32,064 nt of DNA from a virus (IMGVR_UViG_2693429524_000019:1-32064), one strand, 5' to 3'; counted from the first letter of the stretch, positions 1,398 through 10,341 are shown. Program-made: numbers and translations. Notes: a model not told the origin generated them from the letters alone.

Positions 1398-1987
1398 TCA
1401 TTTATCTCCGACCGGAAACTTCTTATACAAAGTCGATACGCCAACATCATAGATGATCTCCACATTCTGGCGATGAACTCCTGATGCAATTAGTCGCCCG
1501 GCCTGCGCCCATTGTTCTGATGAAAGTTTGGGACGGCGACCGCCAATTCGTCCCTGTGCGCGAGCAGCTTCCAGTCCAGCTTTTGTTCGTTCAACAATCA
1601 GTTCACGCTCCATTTCAGCCAGGGCACCCATGACATGAAAAAAGAAACGGCCATTGGGGTGCTGGTATCAATACTGTCAGTCAGGCTTCGGAAATTCACG
1701 CCACGCTGACGCAACTCTTCTATCAGCGTAACAAGATGCCGCATACTGCGCCCCAACCTGTCCAGCTTCCAGACAACCAGAGTGTCTCCTGCCGATAGTG
1801 TCCTGAGCAGTTTTTTAAGCCCCGGTCTGTCGGACTTAGTGCCACTGATTTTATCCTCAAAAACCCGCTCACATCCCGCGCAGTTCAGTGCATCACGTTG
1901 CAGATCGGTGTTCTGGTCATTTGTTGATACGCGTACATAGCCAATAAGTATGTTAAATCCCCCTGGTAAAAGCAGGAATGATGCCAT
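1398..1987 (-). pseudogene. pin: DNA invertase of the Pin/Gin/Hin serine recombinase family, disrupted
   Basis: two ORF fragments (1598..1987 and 1398..1631) together align to recalled Pin/Gin: ..IGYVRVSTNDQNTDLQR.. then ..MGALAEMERELIVERT..GRIGGRRPKL..; canonical start codon is ATA (the peptide reads ILIGYVRV); a one-base loss near 1648-1651 (ATGGCC where ATGGGCC is expected) shifts the frame between the catalytic and HTH domains. Confidence 0.8.
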
Positions 1988-2005
1988 TTGCTTGTTATTT
2001 CTGCA

Positions 2006-2031
2006 TTTTCATAAACGTTGGTTTGGGAGAA
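2006..2031. repeat. candidate invertase crossover site A (gix/pix-like), adjacent to pin
   Basis: TTTTCATAAACGTTGGTTTGGGAGAA resembles recalled gix/hix consensus (AAACC-NN-GGTTT core); shares core TTGGTTT with site B in inverted orientation. Confidence 0.4.
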
Positions 2032-2487
2032 GGTGCTCCAGCTATTGGCGTTCCGTTCTTCTGGCCGTCCGCTGCAATGCCAAATACTGTAATCGACAGC
2101 TGGTCCAGTATGGTGTTTTTGAAGTTCAACGGGGCGAAATTTTCTGCCTCTGATTACCCTGTGCTGGCAAAAGTGTTTCCTTCGCTGGTATTACCTGAAG
2201 CCCGCGGTGATTTCATTCGTATCTGGGATGATGGCCGTGGTGTTGATAGTGGCCGTGCGTTACTTTCCGCGCAATCAGACGATTTCAAAACGCACGAGCA
2301 TAAATTTTTAGGGCTAAATGGAAGTGGCAGTAATGTAGTGTTTGGCACCGTTTCGAATGCTTCTCCATTATATACCAGCGGCGTTAGTCAGCCGGGTGGA
2401 AGTGCTTTGCCCGCTTTTCAAAACCCAGGCGGTACTGAAACGCGTCCCCGTAACATCGCATTCAACTTTTTAGTAAGGGCTAAATAA
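2021..2487 (+). CDS. alternative tail-fibre C-terminal segment (Sv'), silent orientation, no own start
   Basis: reading frame continuous from crossover core; encodes GAPAIGVPFFWPSAAMPNTVIDSWSSMVFLKFNGAKF...GDFIRIWDDGRGVDSGRALLSAQ, a conserved tail-fibre C-terminus of the Mu S / P1 S / e14 StfE type. Confidence 0.6.
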
Positions 2488-3080
2488 TGAAACCTGTTTT
2501 TGATGAAAATGGGCTGGCTACAGTGCCGGGCGATATGCGTTGTTTTTATTATGATGCAGTAACGTATGAATATACGGGCTGGTCTGATGAATATATTAAT
2601 ACTGGCGTAAGTATGCCCGCCTGTTCCACTGGTATTGACCCTGGCGAATACATTCCGGGGAAAGTGGCAGTATTTACGGGTAAGGGATGGAGCCATGAAG
2701 AAGACCACCGCAATGAGACTGTTTACTCAATCGAAAATGGCGCAGCTGTTACAGTGGATTATATCGGTGCCATCAAAGACGGTTATGTCACGCTTTCACC
2801 GTTAACGCCATACGATAAATGGGATGGTGAGAAATGGGTGACCGATACTGAGGCACAGCATAGCGCTGCAGTAGACGCGGCAGAAGCACAGCGTCAGTCA
2901 CTGATTGATGCTGCAATGGCTTCCATCAGTCTGATTCAGCTGAAATTGCAGGCCGCACGTAAACTGACGCAGACAGAAACAACCCGACTTAACGCCGTGC
3001 TGGATTACATTGACGCGGTGACTGCAACAGATACCAGCACCGCGCCGGATGTCATCTTGCCTGAACTGCCGGAGGCGTAG
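2487..3080 (+). CDS. tail fibre assembly protein (U'/Tfa), silent orientation
   Basis: 197 aa; ATG overlaps the Sv' stop (TAATG); C-terminal ..LNAVLDYIDAVTATDTSTAPDVILPELP is a typical Tfa C-terminus; convergent with the other tfa. Confidence 0.7.
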   Translation: MKPVFDENGLATVPGDMRCFYYDAVTYEYTGWSDEYINTGVSMPACSTGIDPGEYIPGKVAVFTGKGWSHEEDHRNETVYSIENGAAVTVDYIGAIKDGYVTLSPLTPYDKWDGEKWVTDTEAQHSAAVDAAEAQRQSLIDAAMASISLIQLKLQAARKLTQTETTRLNAVLDYIDAVTATDTSTAPDVILPELPEA

Positions 3081-3489
3081 GCCATTCAATATCTGGAGCA
3101 CTGGAGGTATCAACCAGTTCCAGTGCGTCCAGATAATCCAGCCACAAATTATATTGCGCCAGTTCCTCACCTTTCAGACGACCAATAGCTGCTTTACCTG
3201 GCCATTGCCTGTTATTCATGTGCTCATTGGCAGTATCTATGCGCCGCTGACGCTCGTATTCTGCCATCTTTATCAGTTCTTCAGGTGCCAGTGGCGGAAT
3301 ATCACTCCATACGGGATAACCATCATCACCCGCAATCCTCATTTTTCCCTCCGGTGGCTTCTGAAATGCAACAAAAGTCTCTTCATCAACTTCCACGCCT
3401 TTTTCGGGCCACATCCCTGCCGCCTCATAGTCTGCCTGCATTGCTAATGGATAAAATGCGTTAGTTACTGCGTCGTATAAATATTTCAT
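3052..3489 (-). CDS. tail fibre assembly protein (U/Tfa), expressed orientation
   Basis: 145 aa, SD AGGAAG upstream, immediately follows tail-fibre gene; C-terminus ..NLWLDYLDALELVDTSSAPDIEWPTPP is paralogous to the U' C-terminus. Confidence 0.7.
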   Translation of the reverse strand: MKYLYDAVTNAFYPLAMQADYEAAGMWPEKGVEVDEETFVAFQKPPEGKMRIAGDDGYPVWSDIPPLAPEELIKMAEYERQRRIDTANEHMNNRQWPGKAAIGRLKGEELAQYNLWLDYLDALELVDTSSAPDIEWPTPPAVQAR

Positions 3490-3491
3490 TT

Positions 3492-4640
3492 TTATCTTCC
3501 TATTGCTATCCAGTTGGCACCAGCTCCTTTGACAGCCCCCTGACGCGATGACGCGAGATAAAAACCATAGTTATTTATCTTACTTGTCGAGAATGCCGGG
3601 CAGTCTTCTGCACTGGTTGGCGTATCGAAAGAACATGCGACGCGATAATCATCGGTAAAAGGTATCGGGAAATTAACAGCAGTTGGGTAGCCAGCAGAGC
3701 CTGAAATGTTCGTACCAAACTGCATGATGGTGCCGTCAGGAAATTTCACCCAGCCAGGACCTGATGTGAAATTAGCCATTGTCGGAACCTGATTAGCCCC
3801 ATTTCCCAGGTTTGCTGTTGCTGCTGAGCCAAGCCCTAAATTTGCTCGTGCGTCGGCAGCTGTGGTCGCGCCGGTTCCGCCCTGACTAAGCGCTAGAGCC
3901 ATTGGCGTTCCGATATTGTTAAGTACGCCCCATGCACCACTATCATTCACAAACAGCCGATAGTTATCGCTTTGTGAAGTAATGTATGTGTCAACTAAGC
4001 CTTGTACTAAACGATTGACGCCAAGGTTACTACGCGCTTCTGCCAGAGAAGTCCCGCCAGTTCCCCCCTTAGACAGAGGTACTGTGTTCTCCGTTGCCAC
4101 ATCTCCCAGACCAAGATTACTACGCGCGCTGGCAGCATCTTTTGCACCTGTACCGCCAGATGATAATTGCAGTGCAATAGTCCCTGCCTGGGGACTTATT
4201 GAATATGCCCCCCATCCATCATTCTGCACAAAAACATAAGATTTTTTGTTTGGTGACCAAATGCGTGTTTCGTTAGTGTCCTGATCACATCTTTCTAAAC
4301 CAAGATTTTCGAGAGCCGTTTTCACCGTGCCGTCCGATTTGATATCGCCAAACGGATTCTTGCGGCTCAGGTATTCAACAGCAAACCCCGATCCCAGCAA
4401 TTCAACAAAACCGGACAGATCACCATTATCAAGCACATCCCGTTGCGTTTTATCACTTACAAACTGGGCCAGAGCTGCAGCAATAAAGCTGGCCTGCCGA
4501 ATAACCTTATTGACTTGCGCACTGGATGCTTTACCTGCTGTAAATCCGGATAAAAGCGCAGGCAACGCTTCCCATTCCTCCTGCGACATAACATTGGCAT
4601 TTTTACCCGTTGCGAATGCTTTAAAGTCATTTTTTGCCAT
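3492..4640 (-). CDS. tail fibre protein (S): constant N-terminal part plus variable C-terminal part
   Basis: 382 aa from ATG at 4640 (TGATG coupling with upstream gene); three repeats of LSxGGTG..(A/S)xxARxNLGLG; last gene of the baseplate operon before the tfa. Confidence 0.75.
   Translation of the reverse strand: MAKNDFKAFATGKNANVMSQEEWEALPALLSGFTAGKASSAQVNKVIRQASFIAAALAQFVSDKTQRDVLDNGDLSGFVELLGSGFAVEYLSRKNPFGDIKSDGTVKTALENLGLERCDQDTNETRIWSPNKKSYVFVQNDGWGAYSISPQAGTIALQLSSGGTGAKDAASARSNLGLGDVATENTVPLSKGGTGGTSLAEARSNLGVNRLVQGLVDTYITSQSDNYRLFVNDSGAWGVLNNIGTPMALALSQGGTGATTAADARANLGLGSAATANLGNGANQVPTMANFTSGPGWVKFPDGTIMQFGTNISGSAGYPTAVNFPIPFTDDYRVACSFDTPTSAEDCPAFSTSKINNYGFYLASSRQGAVKGAGANWIAIGR
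4290..4316. repeat. candidate invertase crossover site B inside the tail-fibre gene
   Basis: plus strand TCTTTCTAAACCAAGATTTTCGAGAG; reverse complement carries the same TTGGTTT core as site A; encodes ..ENLGLER.. in S, frame-compatible with ..NVGLGEG.. at site A. Confidence 0.4.
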
Positions 4641-5320
4641 CAGAGTAATACTCCCCATGCCCCTACATCAAAACCACTGATAAATTCGTTATCCATATCA
4701 AAACCAAAAAATTTTGAGCCTTCCGATGGGGTTTCCACCGAAGGTGTTTCAATGCCACCCGCCCATACCCCGGCGGCTTTTACTGTGAGATACCCCTGTT
4801 TAATTGCCGCAATTAACTCACGCGATACATCTGAAATATCAGTATCAGGAAAGACCCAGACCGATATCGTCATGTCCTGGTTATCGACTATCTGCATTCG
4901 CAGCCCGGATCCTGCTGTTGCAGCGTCAAGAATTGCCGGAAGCGAATCATTCCGTCCATCCCAGTTATTAATCGCAATCTTCGCTTTAAGAATGACACGA
5001 TAAGTTTCATCGCTGAGATACATGTATCCTGAATCAGGATCGTATGGTCCCTGCCATACCCCCTGATCATATCCAAGCCCGTCGGTATCCCAGCTGAAAT
5101 AGACACCTGAGATAGGCTGGCTGACAACACGGCTACGTCCGATCCACAATCCAAGAATGTCAAGTTGCACACCAACCGCAGAGTCAATATCAAATGCAGT
5201 AATCAGCCCTCTGGTGGCAGCCGCAACATCAATAAGTGGCCGGGTCATCAGATCAACATGCGCAAGAAATTTAGGTTTGGTGGCGTGGTAGTTCGTGATT
5301 AGTTCGGTGTATTTGCTCAT
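4640..5320 (-). CDS. tail/baseplate protein (P2 gpI / Mu gp48-like)
   Basis: 226 aa, ATGA overlap with the J-like gene upstream, position between baseplate J and tail fibre. Confidence 0.55.
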   Translation of the reverse strand: MSKYTELITNYHATKPKFLAHVDLMTRPLIDVAAATRGLITAFDIDSAVGVQLDILGLWIGRSRVVSQPISGVYFSWDTDGLGYDQGVWQGPYDPDSGYMYLSDETYRVILKAKIAINNWDGRNDSLPAILDAATAGSGLRMQIVDNQDMTISVWVFPDTDISDVSRELIAAIKQGYLTVKAAGVWAGGIETPSVETPSEGSKFFGFDMDNEFISGFDVGAWGVLL

Positions 5321-6516: not shown

Positions 6517-6869
6517 TACGCCTCCGATGTAACAGTCGTTATTCCATAAAGAGTGTCGATTTCAGCGGAAAACATGACACGTCGGGTCGTGGTATCCACC
6601 GTCGTATTGAAAGAGAGGATTGATTTAACGCCCCGCGTTTCGAGGATGCGCTTACGGATCGCCAGGTTGTAGGTTTCCGGCTTCTGCTTACCGAGTACGG
6701 ACTGGATCCACGGAGTCCCCTCGGTGGTGTCGAGAAACCATTGCCCATACCACAATTCGAATCGCGTTTTTACCGCCTGCGCCACGGCCTCCGGTGAGTT
6801 AATCAGCCAGGTGTCATCACCGCTGCCAAAGGTGTAATCGCCATCGGCGTCTTCACGTCTGTATCGCAT
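6516..6869 (-). CDS. baseplate protein, GPW / gp25-like (Mu gp46)
   Basis: 117 aa, coupled between V-like and J-like genes; size and position match the GPW/gp25 family. Confidence 0.6.
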   Translation of the reverse strand: MRYRREDADGDYTFGSGDDTWLINSPEAVAQAVKTRFELWYGQWFLDTTEGTPWIQSVLGKQKPETYNLAIRKRILETRGVKSILSFNTTVDTTTRRVMFSAEIDTLYGITTVTSEA

Positions 6870-7621
6870 CAGTTTACCCCATCGGTATTGCTTCCACCGC
6901 GCTGAACACCGCCATGAGTGTGCGTATCATCGATTGGCTTGCCGTTAGCCTTCACGCTACCCAAAAACTCAACAGCACCAGTGATTTTTGAAGCCACACC
7001 AGAAACAACAGCCCCCACCATGCCTCCCATCCAGGTTAACAGGCCATGAATGGTTACTTTCTCAGAAAAATCAGCCAGAGGGGCAACCACATCAAGGCCC
7101 CCCGGAGCGACAATTTTAATTTTCCTGGTATCAGGATTAAGCTCAAAATAGGTGCTGCCGTCATCACTACGCAACTGTGTGGCACTGGTATTAATACCGC
7201 TAATCTTCCTTGCCTGCGACTGGGGACCGACAATACAAAACGCATCCGATAAATCATGCATTCTGTCATCGACCGGCTCCTGTATCCCGCCACTCTGCCA
7301 CCAGAAATCAATACAACGATCGGCAAAAATCACCAAACATTCATCACCGGCTTTAACTGGAAACGTTAGCGTACAGCCTCCGCCGCGCGGGAATACCACT
7401 GGTACATCCACCAGCAGGGGTAATGTCGTCGACTGGTTGATTCCATTTGAGTCCGGCTCATAGCCTTTAATCGCAGGTTGAACAACCACTGTTACCGTGT
7501 CCGGATCAAATGACTGGACGATGCCGGGCATAGAAACACGCAGCGCCGACATGACAGAGCCAGCAAGTCTTACATCGGCCTGTTCTTTGCTACCAAGTTG
7601 AGCGCTTAAAGAAACTGGCAT
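6869..7621 (-). CDS. baseplate assembly protein V / central spike (Mu gp45 family)
   Basis: 250 aa, SD GGAGG 8 nt upstream; glycine-rich C-terminus; first gene after the moron terminator. Confidence 0.55.
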   Translation of the reverse strand: MPVSLSAQLGSKEQADVRLAGSVMSALRVSMPGIVQSFDPDTVTVVVQPAIKGYEPDSNGINQSTTLPLLVDVPVVFPRGGGCTLTFPVKAGDECLVIFADRCIDFWWQSGGIQEPVDDRMHDLSDAFCIVGPQSQARKISGINTSATQLRSDDGSTYFELNPDTRKIKIVAPGGLDVVAPLADFSEKVTIHGLLTWMGGMVGAVVSGVASKITGAVEFLGSVKANGKPIDDTHTHGGVQRGGSNTDGVN

Positions 7622-7639
7622 TCATATGCCTCCAGAAAG

Positions 7640-7665
7640 CAAAAAACCCACTCGAAGGCGGGTTT
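7640..7665 (-). terminator. intrinsic terminator downstream of the moron genes
   Basis: minus strand AACCCGCCTTCGAGTGGGTT hairpin (7-bp stem, one GU) followed by TTTTGCTTTC. Confidence 0.6.
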
Positions 7666-7729
7666 TATGTAGCTAGTTTTCTTTCCATGGTGATAGAAGC
7701 AATTACCGTGGAAAGTTAATTTAGCGAAC

Positions 7730-8071
7730 TCATTTCTTATTTTCAGATAGCACCAATCTACATTCTTCTTTTTTTAGAATCGTAAGAGATTGGCCACTAT
7801 CGGAAAAAGAATAACCGCACTCGGAAGCGAGTTGACGCAGAGCTATTTCACCATAACTATCACCATGTTCTTTCATTAACTCATCACCAAAATCCGCCTC
7901 ACGACCATTAGATACAGCGTCCATAGCCGCATTAGAAACAGCCCTATTTGTGATCTCTCTCTTGATGATGTAGTTATCAGCCAGTGAGGTGTGCAGTCCA
8001 AAAAAATCATTCAGCGTTCCACCTACACAAATTGTTGGAGTCAACACTGCGAGAAGGAATATTTTCTTCAT
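7730..8071 (-). CDS. secreted (Sec signal peptide) protein of unknown function, moron
   Basis: 113 aa, N-terminus MKKIFLLAVLTPTICVGG is signal-peptide-like; lies in an AT-rich block unlike flanking phage genes. Confidence 0.5.
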   Translation of the reverse strand: MKKIFLLAVLTPTICVGGTLNDFFGLHTSLADNYIIKREITNRAVSNAAMDAVSNGREADFGDELMKEHGDSYGEIALRQLASECGYSFSDSGQSLTILKKEECRLVLSENKK

Positions 8072-8106
8072 TACAAATGTCTCTTATAGCTGATTTCTTA
8101 AAAAAA

Positions 8107-8349
8107 TTAATTACAGTACGTTGTGCCAGTATTGGTCGTCTGGCATTCACGATGTACTGCACTCCCATTAATCGTTCCTGTGGTATACGTAGTACCTGTA
8201 TTGGTTGTATAAGATTCTGTTTTAACTGTAGAACCACTACTGTCTGTACCAGTACAGTAAGTTGTTCCTGTATTTGAAGTGGTGCATGTTACCGCAGCCA
8301 CAGAAGACAAAGTCACAAAATATACCAGTAATAAGATCCATTTAAGCAT
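8107..8349 (-). CDS. small secreted Thr/Gly-rich cysteine-containing repeat protein, moron
   Basis: 80 aa from ATG at 8349 (overlaps the stop of the upstream baseplate gene); signal peptide MLKWILLLVYFVTLSSVAA; mature part has TNTGTTY(C/T) repeated three to four times; AT-rich codon usage. Confidence 0.5.
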   Translation of the reverse strand: MLKWILLLVYFVTLSSVAAVTCTTSNTGTTYCTGTDSSGSTVKTESYTTNTGTTYTTGTINGSAVHRECQTTNTGTTYCN

Positions 8350-9382
8350 TTGGTACCCCACTTATTTTCGCTATCGTATCAGGAGTGAGTAAACTTTTAC
8401 TCCCTTTAGCCAGGCAAAGCAGGTCCATATACCACGCCTGCCCTCGGGTGTCGCCAGTATAATCAATGCTGCCCACAATGTAATCACCGTCAGTATTAAT
8501 ACTGGCAGGCTGTGACATGCCTGGCAGACCGTTAACGTAGAGATTACCGTCGCTTTCAGACTCACCCAGTCGTGCTGGCGATTTCGCTACCTGGTCATTA
8601 CTCAAAGAGGCACGGTATACAGATGCCTGATCCAGACGAATAAGCCCACCGAGCTTAATATTTGGATTAATCAGACATCTGACATTTACGCCCGCTCCCA
8701 TTGTCTGCTGTGGCATACCGATAAGCCCGGTGTTAGCATTCAACACCGTAGCAACACCAATATATTTATCTTCAGGAACAATATTTACCAGATTATTTTC
8801 ATACCACCAGTTAGCTTTACACTGCCCTGCGATATGATTCATCAACCTTGATGTGTTTTGATAAACAACGCGACCCCGGGGAAATACCGTTTCCGGCATG
8901 TCAGGAACTGCACCGGATTCGATTCCATATGGTTCGAATGATTTCATACCCAGACTGAAAAGATCGCTGTACTTCCAGCCAGCTGCCACTGTGGTTTTCA
9001 CACTTGCGTTCAGGTGGCCTTCCCAGCTGTCAATACACTGCAACATGATCCAACTGTCTGTGGCATTATCTTTACCAGTGACAGTAAAACGGATATCTCC
9101 ATTGAATATCATACCAACGTTTTCATCAGGATAATTACCTGCTGCATCCGGTTGCCCCTTGTATCCGGCAATAACCTGTATACGCGAAAACTCCTTCTGC
9201 ATAATCCGGTTCTGAGTGGTAGGAGACAGGTTATAAACCTTAAAATTTCCAACAAATCCATTAAATATGGTCGCAGGCATTTTCTGAATATTGAAAGTGA
9301 CTTTAAGCTCAGAAATTTTTATCCCGTCTCCCTTATCATCAACAAGCAATAATTCAAAGTGACGCATCCAGTTTTTCGACAT
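8342..9382 (-). CDS. baseplate hub / tail protein (Mu gp44 / P-like)
   Basis: 346 aa, SD GGAG upstream, position after two small tail genes downstream of the tape measure. Confidence 0.5.
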   Translation of the reverse strand: MSKNWMRHFELLLVDDKGDGIKISELKVTFNIQKMPATIFNGFVGNFKVYNLSPTTQNRIMQKEFSRIQVIAGYKGQPDAAGNYPDENVGMIFNGDIRFTVTGKDNATDSWIMLQCIDSWEGHLNASVKTTVAAGWKYSDLFSLGMKSFEPYGIESGAVPDMPETVFPRGRVVYQNTSRLMNHIAGQCKANWWYENNLVNIVPEDKYIGVATVLNANTGLIGMPQQTMGAGVNVRCLINPNIKLGGLIRLDQASVYRASLSNDQVAKSPARLGESESDGNLYVNGLPGMSQPASINTDGDYIVGSIDYTGDTRGQAWYMDLLCLAKGSKSLLTPDTIAKISGVPNA

Positions 9383-9384
9383 TG

Positions 9385-9687
9385 TTACTCCGTGAAAACA
9401 TAGAGGTGTGAGAGCGTTCCAAGATCGAATTGCGTCGGATTCTCCTGCCCTGCCACATCGCAGAGCACCACCAGAGAAAAACCCAGATCCATATATCGAT
9501 ACTGTGCCAGCAGGTCAGCCCCCGTAATCATCGGTATACCTGATATAATGGCGGAGCCATTGCTGTCAGCAAGATCCAGAACCCAGTACTCGCCTCGCCA
9601 GATGACAGACAGGTGATAAACCGAACCGTTAATTGTGGTGGCAAAAGTCTGATTGTCAGCAACCAGTGGGATTTCTACGGCTTTCAT
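9385..9687 (-). CDS. small tail/baseplate protein
   Basis: 100 aa, tightly packed in the tail operon. Confidence 0.4.
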   Translation of the reverse strand: MKAVEIPLVADNQTFATTINGSVYHLSVIWRGEYWVLDLADSNGSAIISGIPMITGADLLAQYRYMDLGFSLVVLCDVAGQENPTQFDLGTLSHLYVFTE

Positions 9688-9690
9688 GAA

Positions 9691-10341
9691 TCACCTTCCC
9701 AGAAATAAATTGCTCAAATACCCATCAACAGTGGAGATACCTTCTTGCGCCATCTGTGGCAGCGATTTCAGAATGGAATTATTCGGCGGCACCGTTGTTT
9801 TGGTGCCTGTATTCTGCACAGCAGACGTTCCGACTCCCTCGGTCATATTGTTTTTCGGGGCAACCCTGACTGACTGCGTGGAGGTAATAATTACTTCCCT
9901 GAGGGTAAGTGTCGCCAGAAGCACATTTTCACTACTCTTATCGGTCGTAACCTCCAGCGTTTTTATCAACATATTGTTGTAAATACGCTTGCCGGTTGTC
10001 ACATCGAAAGGAATACGATTCCGCTGCAGGTTAAGCAGTTCCTGATACAGTTCTTTCGGGCTCAGCCCCAGTAAACTGGTAGCCGTCAGGTTACTGGCAA
10101 AATCAAGCAGCGATCCGCCTCCGGAAAAACCGGTTTCCATCACAACCTCAGAAGGGCGCCTGAATGCGTGTTCTGATATATAACCAGCGCCCTCACCACT
10201 GGCACCAGCATTCGTGGGCTGTTCAACCGGATGTTCCGTAATTTCCAGGGCGTCAGTGTGCTTTTCGGTAATAACCACATCAGGAATAATGATTCCTATT
10301 GAGCGGGTTCGCTGCTGCAGTAAAACAGATAAAAAGTCCAT
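9691..10341 (-). CDS. tail protein following the tape measure (DNA-circulation N-like)
   Basis: 216 aa, ATG overlaps the tape measure stop. Confidence 0.4.
   Translation of the reverse strand: MDFLSVLLQQRTRSIGIIIPDVVITEKHTDALEITEHPVEQPTNAGASGEGAGYISEHAFRRPSEVVMETGFSGGGSLLDFASNLTATSLLGLSPKELYQELLNLQRNRIPFDVTTGKRIYNNMLIKTLEVTTDKSSENVLLATLTLREVIITSTQSVRVAPKNNMTEGVGTSAVQNTGTKTTVPPNNSILKSLPQMAQEGISTVDGYLSNLFLGR

Follow-up and report, generated by a model that had tools for sequence, protein, structure and literature searches.

Which kind of protein does a temperate phage encode between the hub and the spike of its tail tip, when a short reading frame at this place carries four cysteines, a repeated threonine-rich motif and no annotation? 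The window analysed here, that is the whole stretch IMGVR_UViG_2693429524_000019:1-32064 at its full length of 32,064 nucleotides, is a temperate myovirus-type prophage. On its minus strand, at 8107-8349, lies a coding sequence of 80 codons plus a stop that has no RefSeq annotation and that we call p80. The open reading frame runs from an ATG at 8349-8347 to a stop at 8109-8107, and its 80-residue product reads MLKWILLLVYFVTLSSVAAVTCTTSNTGTTYCTGTDSSGSTVKTESYTTNTGTTYTTGTINGSAVHRECQTTNTGTTYCN. In the following we ask whether p80 is a gene, what its product may look like, and what such a protein could do for the phage or for its host. Compared loci are designated by L numbers.

Coding evidence and predicted export of p80

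There are reasons to doubt that p80 is a gene at all. The open reading frame is short, its composition is low in complexity and rich in threonine, and the Prokaryotic Genome Annotation Pipeline (PGAP) calls no coding sequence here: in L001, a 99.7%-identical E. coli prophage, RefSeq shows none at 9473-9742 (NZ_CP065613.1, corresponding to window 8072-8341). All this would suit a chance open reading frame in an intergenic spacer. The homologs, however, speak strongly for a gene. A search of 5.8 billion proteins returned five relatives, each of exactly 80 residues and 55-94% identical to p80, and the length of homologs stays within 79-81 residues down to about 30% identity. When 11 homologous loci were checked in six frames, the p80 frame alone was free of stops in all of them, the other frames carrying stops in most. 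Over the mature part, divergent copies give a proportion of nonsynonymous differences (pN) of 0.21-0.34 against a saturated proportion of synonymous differences (pS) of 0.70-0.90, which indicates strong purifying selection. Moreover, C22, C32, C69, C79, both TGTTYC motifs and A18 are invariant in the five close homologs, so that the cysteines as well as the signal-peptide cleavage site are conserved, and the AlphaFold2 model of the protein is confident. We regard it as very likely that p80 is a real gene for an exported mini-protein and consider the chance-frame explanation effectively refuted; the annotation gap for the family is systematic. An alternative GTG start at 8361 was dropped because the homologs align from the ATG.

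These results bear out the earlier note on this DNA, which had proposed a genuine small protein gene with four cysteines. The circumstance that it named as speaking against its own proposal, conservation of another frame across homologs, did not occur, the p80 frame being the only open one in 11 of 11 loci and pN lying far below pS.

The N-terminal residues 1-18 (MLKWILLLVYFVTLSSVA; 8296-8349, minus strand) have the features of a Sec-type signal peptide. The chain opens with M-L-K, in which K3 provides a basic N-region, continues with a hydrophobic core of 11 residues (WILLLVYFVTL, for a required minimum of 10), and presents small residues, S-V-A, at positions -3 to -1, followed by AVTC; no lipobox is found in the leader. 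Furthermore, the first cysteine is preceded by an (A/S/V)-x-A site at a distance of three residues in 16 of 17 non-redundant relatives, and at a distance of four in the remaining one. Because A18 is invariant and the spacing of the AxA site fits the signal peptidase I rule, the predicted cut is placed after A18. From these sequence features, p80 is likely exported and cleaved to a mature protein of 62 residues starting with AVTC. The Sec-type signal peptide reported before is in this way supported by its features and by the conservation of the site, while the mature part of about 61 residues given with it needs a small correction, the likely cut lying one residue earlier.

Three predicted hairpins and the p80 family

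The 62 residues of the mature part comprise 23 Thr, 7 Gly, 6 Ser, 5 Asn, 4 Cys and 4 Tyr. Within them NTGTTY occurs in exactly three non-overlapping copies, an arrangement that arose once when the mature part was shuffled 300,000 times with its composition preserved. Each copy belongs to a hairpin unit of about 23 residues, the units starting at residues 23, 47 and 70 with spacings of 24 and 23, and the first and last are closed by C-x9-C. On the minus strand, unit 1, C22-TTSNTGTTY-C32, occupies 8254-8286; unit 2, S46-YTTNTGTTY-T56, which was placed by repeat mapping and has no cysteine, occupies 8182-8214; and unit 3, C69-QTTNTGTTY-C79, occupies 8113-8145.

An AlphaFold2 model calculated with a 30-sequence alignment has a mean predicted local distance difference test (pLDDT) score of 84.5 overall and of about 92 over the mature part. 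It places strands at residues 20-24 and 30-35, opposed to each other in unit 1, at 41-48 and 53-60 in unit 2, and at 63-71 and 77-79 in unit 3, so that three consecutive hairpins form one antiparallel six-strand meander. The repeated loops are turns one, three and five and lie along the same edge of the predicted sheet. Judging from the strand register of the model, C22-C32 and C69-C79 could form disulfides that staple hairpins 1 and 3. The earlier note had described a low-complexity, Thr/Gly/Asn-rich and β-rich protein, with which the composition and the all-β model agree. Its heptad-like TNTGTTY unit, said to occur three to four times, turns out to be the loop of a longer hairpin repeat present in three units, and the antifreeze-type or adhesin fold that it considered finds no support, as no such family matches and the model is a single six-strand sheet rather than a solenoid.

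The repeat is present at the protein level only, since Tandem Repeats Finder finds no DNA-level repeat in p80 and the three 27-nucleotide units have just 17-20 of 27 bases in common. Nor is TNTGTTY found throughout the family: other members carry TDSWGTTR, TNSFGQTY, KDFLGNYV or TDALGTTR, each three times within its own protein. When units 1 and 3, which are delimited by cysteines and leave no choice of register, are compared alone, their identity is 73% within a protein and 33-35% between proteins (17 non-redundant members). Residues that agree between units are, in the prophage clade, mostly encoded by different synonymous codons, the window gene sharing 2-3 codons among 7-8 identical residues. 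This argues that selection at the protein level keeps the loops alike in this clade, and it rules out recent gene conversion there. In the distant members L021 and L023 the repeat units are identical at the DNA level, and their sequences make duplication or conversion the likely cause. Loops that are identical within a protein yet change freely between proteins are unusual, and represent a clean signal that calls for a structural or a binding explanation. Two possibilities are that the matched loops build side-chain ladders across the sheet, or that they recognise a repeating or threefold target.

A profile search against 1.84 billion cluster representatives, together with a second indexed search, brought up about 70 small uncharacterised relatives of p80, with lengths of 62-131 residues and mostly of about 80-90. 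The statement of the earlier note that nothing matches this protein holds for annotated families, but does not hold in view of these relatives. The family follows a common plan: a signal peptide; a C-x9-C loop; the pattern x-G-x4-G-x2-(V/I)-x-(T/S); a second loop copy without cysteines; a linker containing glycine; and a final C-x9-C followed by one residue. The profile search also listed large RCC1-like repeat proteins (P0010, P0012, P0013, P0017), which share the motif C-x-T-x-x-G-x-x-Y-C-W-G-x-D-x-x-G with the p80 profile; on reading the sequences we set them aside as a motif-level likeness and not homology. A match of an Acinetobacter relative to Pim (pesticin immunity) lies below threshold, at 15.7 bits for a cut-off of 24, and is taken as chance. 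The best neighbour of p80 in a BFVD fold search is an uncharacterised 90-residue protein of Klebsiella phage RaK2 (E 0.014, 29% identity). None of 50,697 phage genomes gave a tblastn match to p80 or to three of its relatives, a result to which the low-complexity filter of BLAST may contribute.

Distant members are found outside tail modules, on chromosomes, on recombinase-bearing islands and on a plasmid, beside small membrane peptides, lipoproteins and secreted proteins. In three loci (L021 145-1109, L027 6421-7246 and L029 6423-7249) the relative is grouped with a single-pass membrane peptide of 35 residues and a protein of 131-148 residues, the latter being membrane-associated in L021 and secreted in the other two; in another (L025 6003-7261) it is grouped with two lipoprotein-like genes. 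Such groups may represent operons for envelope proteins that are conserved on mobile elements. On an 8.7-kb mobilisable plasmid of Acinetobacter lwoffii (NZ_CP077374.1; L036 4267-4653), a gene lying between toxin-antitoxin pairs encodes a secreted protein of 128 residues, which has seven hairpin units of the RTDSFGNTR type and ends in a p80-like C-x9-C hairpin. With seven units in this protein, the hairpin appears to be the basic module of the family, present in variable copy number. As far as the searched databases show, the p80 family, its anonymous fold, its matched triple loops and the slot for exported proteins after the hub are undescribed.

The hub-spike site and the role of p80

The tail module around p80 comprises a tape-measure protein with an annotated lytic transglycosylase domain, a Dit-like protein, a plug, the hub, the spike, a sheath-initiator-like protein and baseplate J. 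Directly upstream of p80 stands the baseplate hub gene (8342-9382, minus strand; 346 residues), which matches PF22759 (E217_GP41) and phrog_196, the latter at 1.2e-79. The start of p80 and the hub stop overlap by 8 nucleotides, ATGCTTAA (8342-8349, minus strand), as the earlier note had seen for the upstream baseplate gene, and an overlap of 4 or 8 nucleotides recurs in L004, L005, L006, L007 and L008. A Shine-Dalgarno-like GGGG (8356-8359, minus strand) lies 6 nucleotides upstream of the ATG. Within the 3' end of the hub gene, about 107 nucleotides upstream of p80, a consensus scan marks a weak sigma-70-like site, ATTACA-17-TATACT (8456-8484, minus strand; 9/12); this site recurs in L011, and L003 has a 10/12 site at a similar distance. 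Translation with the late genes, one of the two ways of expression suggested before, is favoured by the coupling to the hub, while the second, from a promoter of its own, has this one weak match to go by.

Downstream of p80 follows a second gene, p113 (7730-8071, minus strand), whose product of 113 residues has a hydrophobic, signal-like N-terminus and belongs to phrog_13007, a family of unknown function. Pattern matching then finds an intrinsic-terminator-like hairpin, AAAACCCGCCTTCGAGTGGGTTTT, with a T run (7643-7666, minus strand) before the membrane-puncturing spike gene (6869-7621, minus strand; PF18352 at 1.5e-44 and the PF18946 Apex motif). In L011 and L017, where p80 is the sole inserted gene, a strong terminator-like hairpin comes directly after it. 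The guanine-plus-cytosine (GC) content is 39.5% in p80 and 40.4% in p113, against 44.4% in the hub gene, 50.5% in the spike gene, 44-52% in the neighbours and 49.5% in the window. When the Juhala/Hendrix definition of a moron is applied, as summarised in PMC3594210, the cassette shows insertion between genes that are adjacent in related phages, a differing GC content and its own terminator, the last by pattern match only. Since this combination fits the moron type, p80, p113 and the terminator look like a moron-type accessory cassette.

We found 23 loci with a close homolog of p80; they stem from E. coli, Yokenella, Hafnia, Trabulsiella, viral contigs and metagenomes, and their hubs are 49-99% identical to that of the window. 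The order hub, p80, zero to two further genes, spike is present in all 18 loci that show both flanks; the remaining five are shorter and hold only part of it. The viral contigs L013 and L018 end within the p80 gene. The cassette is rare: of 5,426 complete E. coli genomes, 52 match any of the query stretch 7600-8500 and 6 carry at least 80% of it, most of the other matching genomes having homology limited to the 3' end of the hub gene, and close p80 occurs in 2 of 185,579 species-representative genomes. In E. coli FDAARGOS_943 (H1, NZ_CP065615.1 2060535-2062989), an IS1 splits the 901-bp stretch into three and disrupts the cassette.

In several related phages and prophages, the place directly after the hub is taken by a non-homologous signal-peptide protein of about 110 residues, with one cysteine near each end. 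Its carriers are Klebsiella ST11-VIM1phi8.3, E. coli vB_EcoM-683R1, Yersinia YP3, Klebsiella RCIP0034 and the E. coli prophage L002, the single non-carrier E. coli prophage examined. The gene overlaps the hub stop in L002 (3614-3949, minus strand; 111 residues, phrog_3443), L030 (3516-3863) and L039 (3065-3397), and abuts it in L032 (3565-3900) and L038 (3066-3407). Further exported or membrane-anchored proteins hold the slot in the p80-bearing loci L006, L012 and L019 and in phage SEN34, and Burkholderia phage Magia has a signal-peptide protein there on the opposite strand.

From this context and from the signal peptide, we tentatively propose, with a probability of roughly 0.4, that p80 acts as a protective factor in the periplasm and interferes there either with a receptor or with the penetration of the tail, superinfection exclusion being one example. 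With its start overlapping the hub stop, p80 would be produced alongside the late tail proteins, and perhaps also expressed from the prophage. It would be exported by Sec, and its mature chain of about 62 residues would fold in the periplasm as a six-stranded antiparallel meander of three hairpins, the first stapled by a disulfide between C22 and C32 and the last by one between C69 and C79, while the near-identical loops would all lie side by side on one sheet edge. In the cell envelope it would act as a protective or exclusion factor: bound to the incoming tail tip or to an envelope component (receptor or cell wall), it would keep related phages from penetrating or progeny from being lost on cell debris.

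Several points weigh against this proposal. Export and disulfides are predictions. The hub overlap points to late lytic expression, which is atypical for a prophage-expressed exclusion gene, and the sigma-70-like sites upstream amount to one 9/12 match, a count no higher than in shuffles. Scans of Pfam, NCBIfam, PHROGs and PADLOC with p80, 30 relatives and the slot neighbours gave no significant match, the Pfam scan of 30 family members being read at E up to 1; a PDB sequence profile search with p80 found no match; and the fold searches are uninformative. The type of p80 follows neither the spike nor the hub, which argues against a tight co-evolution with the tail tip: between L015 and the window the hub is 92% and the spike 90% identical, and p80 only 59%. 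The idea that p80 evolves jointly with the spike or hub of its own phage was rejected, the same p80 type occurring with spikes 61-90% identical to that of the window.

The same setting could instead serve the lysogen. p80 might have nothing to do with phage defence and be a factor of lysogenic conversion or host fitness, which binds a ligand such as a glycan, or is a small adhesin or toxin- or bacteriocin-like, to the benefit of the lysogen in the gut. The cassette is moron-like in layout and low in GC, the family is found on chromosomes, islands and a small plasmid and not on phages alone, and the near-identical prophage L001 has the type III secretion system effector gene ipaHb (L001 365-2191) beside its tail-fibre genes; a periodic ligand would also be a fitting partner for three aligned loops with their many Thr, Asn and Tyr residues. 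We nevertheless consider this rather unlikely, as p80 has a Sec signal only and no obvious carrier across the outer membrane, neither a double-glycine leader nor an exporter or dedicated immunity gene lies nearby, no adhesin or toxin family matches, and translational coupling to the hub suggests production mainly near lysis. Such timing leads to another explanation, a late lytic-cycle envelope function in which p80 masks or inactivates receptors against the loss of progeny on debris, or modulates the cell wall or the timing of lysis from the periplasm. In most loci the start of p80 overlaps the stop of the hub gene, which ties its synthesis to that of the late tail proteins, and the gene has the sense orientation within the late operon. 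Yet the terminator and low GC of the cassette are typical of independently transcribed morons, the holin, lysozyme and lysis protein genes of the near-identical prophage lie elsewhere, and p80 is dispensable, most relatives being without it and having unrelated proteins in its place, which leaves this explanation quite doubtful.

A role in the virion itself would explain why the hub-spike position is fixed across hub identities of 49-99% and why p80 is translationally coupled to the hub. p80 would then be a structural or assembly part of the tail tip, such as a PAAR-like pseudo-threefold cap or adaptor on the trimeric hub or spike, and its N-terminus would not be a signal peptide; the three near-identical units kept by selection might correspond to neighbours that form trimers. 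However, 17 non-redundant members keep a canonical signal peptide of the cleavable type, the spike has its own apex motif, and the model of p80 is a flat meander, not a cone, with no PAAR match. The cassette is moreover carried, at 80% or more of the query, by only 6 of the 52 matching E. coli genomes, unrelated exported proteins hold the slot in L002 and in the sequenced phages examined, and distant members lie outside tail modules. As p80 is dispensable, is interchangeable with unrelated exported proteins and has relatives outside tails, it is unlikely to be part of the virion, and a tail-tip role of the PAAR kind seems to us very improbable.

The periplasmic protective factor thus remains the reading that we prefer. 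In a bolder form, which is a long shot, the post-hub site of this widespread tail-module group would be a dedicated locus for periplasmic anti-penetration proteins of at least two unrelated families (p80 and phrog_3443). p80 would then stand for a new exclusion class, and its loops would recognise a threefold target or a repeating one, such as the trimeric tail tip or the cell-wall glycan repeat of about 1 nm, and so stop penetration.

Elsewhere in the window, a resolvase-family gene (1598-1987, minus strand) lies beside opposed tail-fibre and tail-fibre-assembly genes (1978-3080, plus strand, against 3052-4658, minus strand), and the layout of 1598-4658 is reminiscent of the invertible segments for host range in Mu and P1. 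The near-identical prophage of L001, in FDAARGOS_944, also has a cluster of four transfer RNA (tRNA) genes, for Ile, Arg, Thr and Gly (L035 5568-5878). A link of the tRNA-Thr and tRNA-Gly genes to p80 was dropped, the window being without tRNA genes.

Comparison with known systems

PAAR spike tips are, like p80, small and all-β, with three internal repeats and an association with a trimeric spike. They differ in being cytoplasmic, cone-shaped and metal-binding and in having a Pfam family, whereas p80 has a signal peptide and a flat meander model; the 30 members scanned gave no Pfam match to PAAR at E up to 1, and the spike of the window carries the PF18946 Apex. With RHS/YD repeats there is a resemblance at the motif level only, no Pfam or NCBIfam match being found at E up to 1, and the antifreeze families likewise gave no match to p80 at E up to 1, so that we do not assign it to the β-solenoid ice-binding proteins. 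In comparison with both groups, p80 has a period of about 23 residues instead of about 20 or 12, and a single six-strand sheet instead of a shell or solenoid. Its Sec-type leader with an AxA site, and a neighbourhood of tail genes and p113 with no exporter, also set it apart from the class II microcins and small disulfide bacteriocins.

T5 Llp and the Cor proteins of phi80 and N15 are small exported lipoproteins, encoded beside tail or receptor-binding genes, that block the phage's own receptor. They differ from p80 by their lipobox cysteine, p80 having an AxA signal peptidase I site and no lipobox. In P22 the gene order is gene 16, sieA, mnt, arc, ant, gene 9. A positional likeness to sieA beside immI (mnt-arc-ant) is seen in L002 and L033, where Arc-family and antirepressor genes follow the small exported protein of the slot. 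SieA is an envelope exclusion protein with sequence types less than 30% identical that have the same specificity (PMC10883804), and this divergence recalls the unrelated proteins that share the post-hub slot. It is a polytopic inner-membrane protein of a podovirus, whereas p80 is predicted to be a soluble exported mini-protein, and the two show no homology.

The closest mechanistic model for our proposal is Spackle (Sp) of T4. This small protein is exported by Sec and inhibits the tail-spike lysozyme gp5 in the periplasm, its target being the tail tip of a superinfecting phage. The prophage of p80 also has a cell-wall-cutting activity annotated in its tail, the lytic transglycosylase domain of the tape-measure protein. 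Spackle is a helical protein of a lytic phage, and neither the PDB profile search nor the fold searches revealed sequence or fold similarity between it and p80. If the post-hub site is indeed an anti-penetration locus, it would represent a Spackle-like mechanism outside the T4 group with a new mini-protein fold.

As a genetic element, the cassette is most like gp15 of HK97, a moron within the tail operon that encodes an envelope superinfection exclusion protein (PMC3594210). In both cases a small envelope-targeted protein is an add-on between conserved tail genes, absent from relatives, with a differing GC content and its own terminator (PMC3594210). gp15 is a YebO-like inner-membrane protein encoded between the tail chaperone and tape-measure genes, while p80 has a predicted cleavable signal peptide, an all-β repeat fold and the hub-spike site, and has no sequence relation to it. 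Accessory cassettes for small exported proteins are well known within tail operons, and the likely outcome is modest, another accessory gene of a known general type. What p80 adds is a conserved gene missed by RefSeq and an undescribed exported three-hairpin family present on phages, prophages, islands and plasmids, together with a hub-spike site at which temperate myoviruses repeatedly place exported proteins and which could reveal new blocks to entry at the envelope.

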